A stretch of 53,926 nt of DNA from a bacterium (GTDB lineage: Bacteria; Patescibacteriota; Minisyncoccia; Phycocordibacterales; UBA5272): NCBI GenBank assembly GCA_023267535.1, contig JAHFNC010000005.1, positions 1 to 53,926 of the forward strand, in the 5' to 3' direction. Below the pieces are notes generated by a model. The model was not told where the DNA came from. It did no database searches and worked only from the letters and a program-made list of their open reading frames with translations. Shown in pieces: positions 2,456 to 53,879 of the stretch (position 1 is its first letter; each line of letters starts with the position of its first letter). The position numbers and the translations under genes are program-made.

Positions 2456-3664
2456 TTAAAGCGGTGTAGTATTTGATACCGCTGATTCAAATTGTGAACA
2501 AAGAGCAAGAAGATTTCGGTCGCTTTTCGTTCTTACGGCGACGAAACGGGCATAATGTTTAAAATAAGTAACATGCCCTCTTAAAACATCCACATTACCT
2601 TCATGACGCGCAAGAAAAGTTCTTAGCATACCACGAAGTGCTCTACGCTTCTTTCCAGGAAAAGTAATTACCGCACCTCCGTTAATGTCAGTGGAAATTC
2701 CAAATCCAGTTATGGTGACTGTTCCTTGCCTCCTGTAAAGTACTTGTGATTTACGATGGTTAATCCCGAAGGAAGCAGAAGCCACAAACGCTCGTATTTT
2801 CTTTCTCACATCTTCCCAAATGGGGCGAAGTGAAGAAAAAACTAAATCGTCAGCATATTGCGAGAAGGTGATTTTTTTCTCACGGCAGAAATACCTTAGT
2901 GATTTATTAAGCATCATCTCGCAATATAAATTAAACAGATACGGCGACGACGGCGCTCCCGTGATGAGACCTCTTCCGTAAATGGAACGACAAAATGTTT
3001 CTACAAATCTTTTCATCCGAAGCATAAGTGGATCATTGAAGACTCCGTGTAGCACTTGATCTGACCGTATACCAAATCTCAAGTGATGGAAAAACTCATC
3101 GAGCTCCATCATGTACTTGTCGCTACGAACTAAGGCAACGAGAAGAACAGTCAGAAGGTCGGTGTTTAGCTCATCGTAAGCCTGACGAAAATCAATTTTG
3201 TAAAAATACTCGTTATTGATGTGAAGATTGGTATTCTGTATAGCTCTTGAACCAACAACAAAGGCTTTGGCAGAAGGTAATAAAACAAATCGCTTATACC
3301 TATCCCGCACATTAGAAGGAGTGCCTTCATCAATAAAGACCGCCAATTTGCTTTTGATAAAACTTTCAAAAAGTTTGTGAAGGATTTTCATCGGAAGATT
3401 TGGAGCACCTATATGGCGCCTTTTTATTATTCCGTTATTTCCTTCTTTAGAGACAACGTGAAATTCAAATCGTGGAATCATCCATCCTTTTTCAAAAACT
3501 TTTCCTTTCTTCGTCTCTGCTTTTTCTATGTTCTCAAGAATCAATTGAAGCTTTGTGAAAATAGAAAAAGGGTCAAGTTCTGGAACACCAACCGAAGAAA
3601 GCTTTGCCGTCATGTTCCTGACAAAGCTCGCTAGGTCTTTAGCTTTACTAATTTGCTTTGTCAT
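2456..3664 (-). CDS. Reverse transcriptase (stand-alone, 402 aa; retron-like / defence-RT-like, class unresolved)
   Basis: RT motifs: KRRHIGAPNLPMKILHKLF (RT1), GSRAIQNTNLH..FYKIDFRQAYD (RT2, NAxxH-like), GAPSSPYLFNLY (RT4), QYADDLVFSS (RT5), GINHRKSQV (RT6), VTITGFGIS (RT7). AGGAG lies 6 nt upstream of the ATG. Confidence 0.9.
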   Translation of the reverse strand: MTKQISKAKDLASFVRNMTAKLSSVGVPELDPFSIFTKLQLILENIEKAETKKGKVFEKGWMIPRFEFHVVSKEGNNGIIKRRHIGAPNLPMKILHKLFESFIKSKLAVFIDEGTPSNVRDRYKRFVLLPSAKAFVVGSRAIQNTNLHINNEYFYKIDFRQAYDELNTDLLTVLLVALVRSDKYMMELDEFFHHLRFGIRSDQVLHGVFNDPLMLRMKRFVETFCRSIYGRGLITGAPSSPYLFNLYCEMMLNKSLRYFCREKKITFSQYADDLVFSSLRPIWEDVRKKIRAFVASASFGINHRKSQVLYRRQGTVTITGFGISTDINGGAVITFPGKKRRALRGMLRTFLARHEGNVDVLRGHVTYFKHYARFVAVRTKSDRNLLALCSQFESAVSNTTPL

Positions 3665-4008
3665 TAGGAGCTCCTGTCAGAATAAATCAAAGAACGTAAA
3701 TCTCGGTATGGCACTGGGGAGAGTAAAAGGATAAACCTTATCCATACCGAAATGATGGGGTGCGCCCCGATGCTTCCATGGCGACCAGCGGTATCTCCTG
3801 CGTCAACTACGGAGAGCGTGCCGCCAAACTGCGCAAGTCGTCCGCCGAAGGCGGGGCACCCTAACAAAATGGAGCAATTAAGCCCCTTCTCACCACATCG
3901 CACACCTAAGCGTACTTACCATGATGAGATTTTACTGCTCTAATTTGAAACAGTTTATTACAATTCCCTCCACTCTTTTTTCCCCAGTGGCAGCCTCACA
4001 AGGAGGCA
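3665..4008 (-). ncRNA. RT-associated structured non-coding RNA (candidate msr/msd-like or DRT-type template RNA)
   Basis: Visibly GC-rich versus the AT-rich flanks. Many hairpins: gcctc/gaggc 3993-4007, CCGCC-ttc-GGCGG, GGGG-cgca-CCCC, tcggtatgg/ccataccga 3703-3711/3742-3750. Long-range inverted repeat cactgggga(gagt) 3712-3724 versus (actc)ttttttccccagtg 3972-3989. Several G-U pairs exist only in the minus sense. Confidence 0.55.
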
Positions 4009-4014
4009 AGAATA

Positions 4015-4043: not shown

Positions 4044-4046
4044 ACT

Positions 4047-4077
4047 AAAAGGGCGACACCTTAGGTGTCGCCCTTTT
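4047..4077 (-). terminator. Intrinsic terminator after secF
   Basis: aaaaGGGCGACACCttaGGTGTCGCCCtttt. Confidence 0.8.
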
Positions 4078-4090
4078 AGTTATCAAACTG

Positions 4091-9084: not shown

Positions 9085-9157
9085 GCATCCGTAGCTCAGT
9101 TGGTAGAGCGATTGTCTTATACACAATTGGCCCCTGGTTCGAGTCCAGGCGGATGCA
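9085..9157 (+). tRNA. tRNA-Ile (anticodon UAU)
   Basis: Manual cloverleaf: acceptor gcatccg/cggatgc, D gctc-agttggta-gagc, anticodon stem attgt/acaat with loop cTTATAc, T arm cctgg-ttcgagt-ccagg, discriminator A. CCA is not encoded. Confidence 0.85.
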
Positions 9158-12544: not shown

Positions 12545-12939
12545 GGGAGTGTACTTGGATTCGATAGATAAAAATGTTTTATATGTGCTGTGTCGAAAAA
12601 TCTTGATGATTCGTAAAACTTCAAGAACACATTGTTGCAAACAAAACTGCAGCAGCAATTCGTTCACCATATATGGCGTTCGGATTTGCTCCAGCATTCG
12701 CCTAATTTAGGCCAATCTGGTGTCGCCTATTTTTCACCAACTGAAATAGTAACGGCATAATACAAATTGGTGTAGATAGTTATATTGCACACATAATTAT
12801 TGAAACAATGTGCTTTGGTTAATTAACATTTGGTTTGTTTAATAATTAATTAGCCGAGAACACAAGAAGCAAACTAAACACTGTAGACTCATATATACAT
12901 CTTATTTACACGGCGGTTCGACCCCGCCCACTTCCACCA
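12545..12939 (+). ncRNA. ssrA: tmRNA (SsrA)
   Basis: 5' GGGAGUG pairs with 3' CACUUCC-ACCA, including a G3:U70 pair. GGAUUCGA D-like and GGUUCGACCCCGCC T-arm. Tag ORF 12637-12705 = ANKTAAAIRSPYMAFGFAPAFA*. Confidence 0.88.
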
Positions 12940-53806: not shown

Positions 53807-53879
53807 TGTGCCTATCCGGATTTGAACCGGAACTGAGGGCTCCACAAGCCCGCGTGCTAACCATTACACTATAGGCACC
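53807..53879 (-). tRNA. tRNA-His (anticodon GUG)
   Basis: rc = GGTGCCTATAGTGTAATGGTTAGCACGCGGGCTTGTGGAGCCCTCAGTTCCGGTTCAAATCCGGATAGGCACA. Extra 5' G(-1), anticodon loop cuuGUGga, T arm ccgg-ttcaaat-ccgg. Confidence 0.88.

Follow-up and report, generated by a model that had tools for sequence, protein, structure and literature searches.

Here, we describe a reverse transcriptase (RT) and the structured RNA encoded directly upstream of it, on the same strand, in a bacterial contig (GenBank assembly GCA_023267535.1, contig JAHFNC010000005.1; Patescibacteriota, Minisyncoccia, Phycocordibacterales, UBA5272), of which the whole stretch analysed, positions 1 to 53,926 of the forward strand (53,926 nucleotides [nt]), is called the window. 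On balance, positions 3700-4008 of the minus strand probably specify a structured non-coding RNA (ncRNA) of ~310-345 nt that resembles the msr-msd RNA of retrons and is the dedicated partner of the downstream RT. This RNA is real, folds as described below and is specific to the clade of its RT, which is itself retron-like. Together, the two form an orphan lineage of the retron clade, rare and undescribed, that is a variant of the retron kind outside the described types.

The RNA is closed by a long-range helix, P1, formed by two arms designated a1 (5') and a2 (3') by analogy with retrons. An initial annotation of the window had proposed this inverted repeat, and both a direct reading (cactgggga at 3712-3720, gagt at 3721-3724, actc at 3972-3975, and tccccagtg at 3981-3989) and a repeat search bear out all of its coordinates and spacings: a1 and a2 lie 247 nt apart, and a2 ends 48 nt before the ATG of the RT gene. 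The repeat search returns the same element (I2) as 12-nt arms at 3709-3720 and 3981-3992 that are 92% complementary and 260 nt apart. When minus-strand positions 3665-4010 are folded to minimum free energy (-125.6 kcal/mol, z = -2.9), P1 is longer than first proposed, consisting of 9 base pairs (bp; P1a), a 5-nt bulge in a1 (five T on the plus strand, AAAAA in the RNA), and a further 11 bp (P1b). The latter, GAGUGGAGGGA paired with UCCUUUUACUC, includes four G-U pairs that are possible only in the minus (RT) sense, in agreement with the earlier assignment of the RNA to the RT strand. By contrast, the GGAGGG residues that had been put forward as branch-site Gs are paired inside the conserved P1b. 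Within the window alone, the best ungapped helix is of marginal significance (p ~0.035 vs dinucleotide shuffles); the a1/a2 pairing is more than chance because it is conserved, with compensation, in homologs.

For comparison, 20 homologous loci were collected for context. P1a is the top long-range helix in 16 of 18 homologs (combined Fisher p = 5e-13, the sequences being related to one another), with a1 located 315-420 nt and a2 50-66 nt upstream of the RT start. Its arms differ in a compensatory manner, reading CACUGGGGA/UCCCCAGUG in the window, CACCGGGGAGGCA/UGCCUCCCCGGUG in L168, CGCCGGAGGG/CCCUCUGGUG in L165, GCCAGGAAGA/UCUUCCUGGC in L081 and L082, and GUCAGGAAGAG/CUCUUCCUGAC in L173. We constructed an alignment of P1a from the 16 homologs, anchored on the conserved GG/CC core, in which 91.5% of cells are paired (vs 67% in shuffles and at most 56% with partners slid); since the segments had been picked by complementarity, this percentage is inflated, whereas the contrast with partner shuffles is not. 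Double (compensatory) changes occur in 10 of the 11 pairs, and the observed score was reached by none of 500 shuffles. The inner helix, P1b, is present in ~12 of 18 homologs (Fisher p = 4.5e-10 vs shuffles), and four loci (L002, L004, L081, and L082) have a 5-nt bulge at the position it occupies in the window. Furthermore, RNAalifold applied to a natural MAFFT alignment of the six group-2 RNAs (L173, L002, L003, L004, L081, and L082) independently predicts P1a, P1b, and the two internal helices P2 and P3. The initial annotation had staked its reading of the repeat on conservation in homologous loci; the repeat is kept and compensated there, and a1 and a2 form a true covarying helix that closes an RNA encoded on the RT strand. 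Most group-1 homologs also have a small hairpin ahead of a1, like the 5' terminal hairpin P0 of the window.

Enclosed by P1 are a conserved core (P1.1, P2, and P3) and a long variable hairpin (P4). P2 and P3 covary across 17 sequences according to RNAalifold; in P2, each of the pairings of alignment positions 26-30 with 72-76 shows 2-6 compensatory sequences. With R1, a covariance model that covers P2 and P3, the window gives 69.4 bits at 3864-3935, and every family locus has exactly one match (44-69 bits), except the divergent L170. Neither the rest of the window nor the loci of distantly related RTs, over 60 in number, contain a match, which confines the RNA to this RT clade. An nhmmer search with the window RNA likewise finds the upstream regions of L161, L165, L172, L001, and L162. 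P4 is a 104-nt hairpin with 60% GC (vs ~37% in the flanks), replaced by several hairpins in some homologs; it is hypervariable among close relatives, the remaining elements being roughly 90% conserved by eye. No Rfam 15 family matches positions 3665-4010 at its gathering score, and with the threshold relaxed to E values of up to 10, the RNA region yields only weak, chance-level matches (E>=4, far below gathering scores), the stronger ones falling on the neighbouring secF terminator outside the RNA. The RNA region of 12 homologous loci is likewise without an Rfam match. The RNA contains two copies of a GGUAAG-like motif, at 3912-3920 in the internal loop of P2 (CAUGGUAAGU) and at 3733-3741 in the linker between a2 and L5, the 5' arm of a local hairpin described below (GGAUAAGG); the motif is also seen in L161, L162, L165, and L001, with GGUAAGAC and GGGUAAGU as linker copies of homologs.

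Hidden Markov models, motifs, and predicted fold agree that the RT is retron-like. Its only Pfam match is RVT_1, all of its strong PADLOC matches are retron RTs (the best, RT_II-A, at 80 bits and partial), and NCBIfam assigns it 86.6 bits for retron_St85_RT (cut-off 235) and 20.4 bits for Drt2 (cut-off 390). When the family profile is compared to PDB entries, the retron RTs Ec83, Ec86, Ec78, and Ec67 are found at 1e-17 to 1e-14 (Ec83 best, at 1e-17), followed by DRT2 (1.4e-5), the 9ioa RT, and group II intron-type RTs at ~1e-4 to 1e-5. Retron RTs are marked by an NAxxH motif and a VTG triplet (PMC7736814). In an alignment to the Ec83 RT, NTNLH of the window falls on NAKIH and ITG on VTG, i.e. 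relaxed versions of the canonical motifs; the family consensus is NVxxH and xTG, in which N144, H148, T319, and the glycine of TG are each conserved at 90% or more. An AlphaFold2 model (mean predicted local distance difference test score 91.5) shows an RT and no further domain, with three thumb helices and a short helical extension at the N terminus. Its top Foldseek matches are retron RTs (Eco2 first, along with Eco7, I-A, Ec86, and Ec83), ahead of GsI-IIC, DRT2, G2L4, DRT9, and the RTs of diversity-generating retroelements. The N-terminal extension of ~60-90 amino acids (aa) is conserved in the family and absent from classical, ~310-aa retron RTs. As judged from its sequence, the RT is a member of the retron clade that cannot be assigned to a described type.

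The family is small. Among 5.8 billion clustered proteins, 18 close RT homologs were found, and ~32 full-length clusters (50% identity) exceed 230 bits among 1.84 billion representative proteins; the named hosts are Bdellovibrionales, Parcubacteria, Saccharibacteria, and other Patescibacteria. A larger group of unnamed, ~300-aa retron-like RTs (P0047-P0163) scores 150-210 bits on the family profile and ~100 bits on PADLOC retron models. This sister group may constitute a broad unclassified retron-like clade; an a1/a2 pair (GCUUGGGGAU/AUCCCCAAGC) likewise precedes the RT in L006, a Patescibacteria locus and the only one of the group examined. No source searched gives a function name for proteins of the family or of the sister group, and IMG/VR viral contigs contain no close relative of the RT, only partial matches of at most ~34% identity. 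We found no description in the literature of retrons in Patescibacteria, the Candidate Phyla Radiation, or Bdellovibrio; a 2026 preprint on ncRNA mining with a genome language model mentions RT-associated ncRNAs and may include an earlier description. Every homologous locus has a gene-free gap of ~390-520 nt with a GC-rich island upstream of the RT gene; the neighbours vary by lineage and are housekeeping genes (dnaJ / RT / dnaK-grpE, dnaE, uvrD, and secDF).

In the reading that we favour, P1 closes the RNA around P1.1, P2, and P3, which would act as hairpins for recognition by the RT, followed by P4. The RT would bind the conserved core and copy P4 into a small single-stranded DNA comparable to the multicopy single-stranded DNA (msDNA) of retrons. 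The synthesis of this complementary DNA (cDNA) from P4, its priming, and the role of the system in the cell are inferences. A local hairpin that competes with P1, along with pairing of a downstream GUUCUUU motif to the ribosome-binding site, could gate the formation of P1, the definition of the RNA 3' end, and the translation of the RT.

The local hairpin, L5/L3, was found as a second inverted repeat (I1; arms of 12 nt at 3700-3711 and 3742-3753, 92% complementary and 30 nt apart) that shares 3 nt (3709-3711) with I2. The initial annotation had already pointed to a hairpin enclosing a2 and mutually exclusive with the a1/a2 pairing; it is present at that place in the window and in 18 of 18 homologs, with 6-14 bp and unrelated sequences (Fisher p = 2.6e-12), a result matched by the RNAalifold pair counts for seven RNAs of group 1. 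In homologs, L3 lies 0-5 nt from a2, and in the window it overlaps the extended P1a by 3 nt; because L3 abuts or overlaps the a2 arm, L5/L3 and the complete P1 exclude each other. In 15 of 16 RNAs, the fold with P1 has a predicted stability advantage of 5-19 kcal/mol over the fold with L5/L3. A kissing loop or full pseudoknot of P1 and L5/L3 was also considered and is ruled out by geometry (0 nt between a2 and L3; P1 of ~20 bp). Reasoning from that geometry, we regard a pseudoknot that uses P1a alone, with P1b open, as sterically conceivable.

In group 2, the whole a1 strand also lies inside a conserved GGAUC...GAUCC pairing (e.g. at ~805-850 of L081). Both strands of P1 can therefore be sequestered in local loops in these RNAs, a1 by GGAUC/GAUCC and a2 by L5/L3, which looks like a symmetric two-state design; in the window, no clear equivalent of the enclosure of a1 is seen. 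Across the family, L3 is followed by the motif GUUCUUU, a candidate anti-Shine-Dalgarno sequence that is complementary, via G-U pairs, to the ribosome-binding site (GGAGG) of the RT gene. RNAalifold pairs the two in group 2, and most isolated 3' tails fold with the ribosome-binding site paired to GUUCUUU, the energies being weak. This predicted pairing may represent translational control of the RT. Canonical intrinsic terminators, for example GGCGCCCC-UGCU-GGGGUGCC-UUUUCUUUU, lie between the RNA and the RT gene in L167 (~3940-3975), L171 (~1150-1180), and L006 (2810-2845), and beyond the terminator of L006 there is a separate promoter-like sequence (TTGACC-16-TAGGGT). This arrangement implies that the RNA forms a transcription unit of its own in some lineages. 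Taken together, these features suggest a regulatory layer that acts on the formation of the RNA 3' end, on RT translation, or on both.

The likeness to retrons (Ec86/Eco1, Ec83, and types I-XIII; PMC7736814) extends beyond the position and strand of the RNA to the closing helix formed by terminal a1/a2 inverted repeats, to the series of 1-3 short conserved hairpins followed by a long variable hairpin region (here P1.1, P2, and P3, then P4), and to the NxxxH and xTG motifs of an RT whose nearest neighbours in sequence and fold are retron RTs. The variability of P4 has parallels as well, in that retron msd and DRT2 template regions vary strongly while their flanks are conserved (PMC12039810). 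In these respects, the msr-msd geometry suggested in the initial annotation is borne out; the likeness does not extend to the branching G, the effector, or the score of the RT against type-specific models.

Several observations weigh against a retron assignment. Opposing Gs at the inner end of a1 are a criterion for retrons (PMC7736814), whereas no conserved G and no opposing-G pair is found at the inner end of P1 across the family, with the reservation that the helix ends were inferred computationally and may be shifted in register. At its inner end, P1b is flanked by A/A in the window and by varying nucleotides (A, U, C, or G) in the family as a whole. An effector is part of every described retron type (PMC7736814); here, the RT model contains no fused effector domain, and an all-against-all BLAST comparison of flanking open reading frames (ORFs) revealed no conserved effector gene, since neighbouring ORFs share only lineage-level synteny, along with spurious frames inside the RT gene. 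The RT falls far below the trusted cut-offs of all PADLOC and NCBIfam retron models. In addition, ~30 nt including L5 separate P4 from a2, and the terminators found in L167, L171, and L006 are atypical of retrons. We know of no counterpart in retron RNAs of the conserved L5/L3 hairpin, which encloses a2 and competes with P1. Further differences from retrons are the two-part closing helix with its conserved bulge, the larger than typical size of the RNA (~250 nt between a1 and a2), and the hosts, which are Patescibacteria and Bdellovibrionales. Because the branching G, the effector, and the assignment to a type all fail, we place the module outside the described retron types. The RT model is structurally closest to the RT of Eco2 (Ec67), a 'minimal' single-protein retron (PMC12916289) that is similarly compact as a system; the Eco2 RT, unlike the one described here, is fused to a Toprim nuclease effector.

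A bolder proposal, which we consider possible but rather unlikely, is a self-contained, effector-less module of the retron clade in which reverse transcription would be gated by the switch between P1 and L5/L3 together with the anti-Shine-Dalgarno pairing. The cDNA of P4 would itself be the output, whether as decoy, sensor, or de novo coding product, following a logic like that of DRT2 or DRT9. Were this true, such a module would be kept by episymbiotic Patescibacteria, whose genomes are reduced, as well as by predatory Bdellovibrionales.

The RNA could also be the partner of the RT in a mode other than that of retrons, with the core as a scaffold and a short or defined template that is copied through protein priming or repeat addition (the modes of DRT9, DRT10, and DRT2), and with P1 and L5/L3 as template-boundary or pseudoknot elements. 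DRT2 and DRT9 are likewise two-component systems without a separate effector (PMC12039810, PMC12483538). The lack of a conserved branching G and the presence of the N-terminal extension, which classical retron RTs do not have, also fit such a mode, and by our own reasoning P1a and L5/L3 could make an H-type pseudoknot if P1b were open. DRT2 (UG2), with its pseudoknotted ncRNA and its synthesis of neo (PMC12039810), shares with the module an upstream ncRNA, a central RNA region that is the least conserved, and helices that bracket the candidate template. Nevertheless, the RT is nearer to retron RTs than to DRT2, DRT9, and group II-like RTs in the PDB comparison (1e-17 vs 1e-5), Foldseek agrees, and its 20 bits for Drt2 place it in another clade; P1 thermodynamically dominates L5/L3, and no conserved short repeat-template motif was identified. 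We therefore judge this account doubtful. More improbable still, in our view, is that the region serves solely to regulate the RT mRNA in cis, as a leader that is not copied, in which alternative folds (P1, L5/L3 with a U-rich tract behind it, and GUUCUUU paired to the Shine-Dalgarno sequence) set termination or translation. Direct competition between P1 and L5/L3, the conserved pyrimidine-rich motif within 1-5 nt after L5/L3, the predicted anti-Shine-Dalgarno pairing, and the canonical terminators at this place in three loci all fit such a leader. A leader of ~250 nt that combines a conserved core of several hairpins with a hypervariable GC-rich domain, however, far exceeds what attenuation needs, the characterised RTs of retrons, DRT2, DRT9, and DRT10 use a dedicated upstream RNA as template or scaffold (PMC7736814, PMC12039810, PMC12483538, PMC12632851), and regulation and templating are compatible with each other.

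Two coding explanations were raised by the long frames in the region, both of which are present as listed in the initial annotation (3664-3903, minus strand, 79 aa; 3752-3943, plus strand, 63 aa). That annotation had allowed that the frames might be an artefact of composition, and their lengths indeed match dinucleotide-shuffle expectation (p = 0.24 for the sense and 0.17 for the antisense frame). The minus-strand frame of 79 codons (3903-3667) could be a small protein gene coupled to the RT gene through a TAATG overlap, and L161 has an annotated 91-aa gene that overlaps the RT start; in other loci, no gene is called there. The longest sense frame shifts in frame and position among homologs (the corresponding frame has at most 36 codons in L165 and L082, and any frame at most ~57 codons in L165, L173, L170, and L082), neither the 79- nor the 63-codon frame has a Pfam or PADLOC match, and conservation fits helices with G-U pairs and compensatory changes rather than codons. 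Protein coding by these two frames is accordingly rejected, and a small protein gene is barely conceivable. Nor does the evidence favour a neo-like template, copied into concatemers to yield an endless open frame and thereby an effector made de novo, which we regard as very improbable. The absence of an effector gene, the variable central region (as in the DRT2 template region), and a mild depletion of antisense stop trinucleotides across the family (128 observed vs ~167 expected from shuffles, by our sums) are compatible with it, and the neo gene of DRT2 lies on the antisense strand (PMC12039810). The stop depletion is the sole neo-like hint, and a weak one. The antisense signal combined over the family is only borderline and explicable by G-rich composition, which makes the antisense strand poor in stops, and by the relatedness of the sequences. 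Antisense open frames occupy inconsistent segments among homologs without a common start codon, for which reason a neo-like antisense ORF is rejected, and the RT is outside the DRT2 clade. DRT2 is further marked by a unit length divisible by three, split antisense promoter motifs, and flanking ACA motifs (PMC12039810); a scan of the window alone gave no promoter-like match on the antisense strand inside the RNA, homologs, ACA-type motifs, and unit length not having been searched. A concatenated stop-free template of the DRT2 type, as envisaged in the initial annotation, was not found by a test that is indirect, the template boundaries not being mapped.

Described retrons pair an RT and an RNA with an effector; here, a retron-related RT and a large conserved RNA occur without a partner gene, in a small, unannotated lineage whose hosts have very small genomes. 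Should the module be active, either retron-type reverse transcription has a toxin-free function or the DNA product or the RT itself is the effector, and both outcomes would extend the retron concept. The competing helices around a2 provide a testable handle on the control of initiation or of RT expression. The RNA represents a new family, a candidate for inclusion in RNA databases and a possible compact source of RT-derived DNA for editing tools.

Table 1. Features of the RT-RNA module and its surroundings in the window, ordered by position
Feature	Position	Strand	Basis or remark
Partial 16S rRNA gene	1-769	minus	at window edge
NUDIX gene	997-1536	minus	
DsbB gene	1538-2098	minus	
68-aa orphan ORF	2162-2368	minus	87 nt downstream of RT
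RT gene, 402 aa	2456-3664	minus	ATG at 3664
Shine-Dalgarno AGGAG of RT gene	3671-3675	minus	direct reading
GUUCUUU motif, candidate anti-Shine-Dalgarno	3689-3695	minus	kept after L3 across family
L3, 3' arm of local hairpin, CCAUACCGAGAU	3700-3711	minus	repeat I1; adjoins a2 directly
a2 outer arm, 3' strand of P1a, UCCCCAGUG	3712-3720	minus	repeat search and homologs
a2 inner arm, 3' strand of P1b, UCCUUUUACUC	3721-3731	minus	fold and homologs
L5, 5' arm of local hairpin, AUUUCGGUAUGG	3742-3753	minus	repeat I1
P4, long imperfect GC-rich hairpin, msd-like candidate template	3758-3861	minus	minimum-free-energy fold
P3 hairpin, GGGGC-UUAAUU-GCUCC	3871-3886	minus	RNAalifold; part of R1 match
P2 core helix, CUCAUCAUGG-UAAG-(inner hairpin)-GAU-GUGGUGAG	3889-3928	minus	RNAalifold and covariance model
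P1.1 small hairpin, ACUGUUU-CAAAUUA-GAGCAGU	3934-3954	minus	minimum-free-energy fold only; weakly conserved
a1 inner arm, 5' strand of P1b, GAGUGGAGGGA	3965-3975	minus	pairs with 3721-3731
5-nt bulge AAAAA between P1a and P1b	3976-3980	minus	minimum-free-energy fold
a1 outer arm, 5' strand of P1a, CACUGGGGA	3981-3989	minus	repeat search and homolog alignment
P0, 5' terminal hairpin, GCCUC-CUUGU-GAGGC	3993-4007	minus	minimum-free-energy fold
Promoter-like site TTGACA-17-TAGTAT	4043-4015	minus	consensus scan, 10/12 matches
secF and secD	upstream of RT and its RNA	minus	names from position and length
tRNA genes, two	9085-9157 and 53807-53878		
Transfer-messenger RNA gene	12545-12939	plus	

The module is located in a low-GC chromosome segment (~35-40% GC). 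The 345 nt between the RT start and the promoter-like site form a GC island (52-60% GC vs ~37% in the flanks), and that site implies a transcript start near 4008, ~19 nt before a1, close to the ~20 nt given in the initial annotation. Comparable -35/-10 pairs were recognised by eye upstream of the RNA in L172, L168, and L164. Two strong, GC-rich hairpins with runs of A and T on either side resemble bidirectional terminators: AAAAGGGCGACACCUAAGGUGUCGCCCUUUU (4045-4083), which insulates the RNA promoter from the putative secF gene upstream, and AAAAGCGCGACCGGAGGUCGCGCUUUUU (2128-2160), which separates the 68-aa ORF from the DsbB gene. This ORF has no Pfam, PADLOC, or NCBIfam match and no counterpart beside RT homologs; its product contains Cys and His residues (MKTAQQFLEEDPREPEPASCGH...CQDCYFEC...HGGCH). 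In several homologous loci, tRNA genes adjoin the RT-RNA module, on both sides in L169 (2893-2965 and 5295-5367) and also in L003 (4082-4156), L081 (85-171), and L164 (1-49), and the position of the module relative to the DsbB and NUDIX genes differs between the window and L161. Such adjacency and shifts in position may reflect past mobility or island-like insertion.

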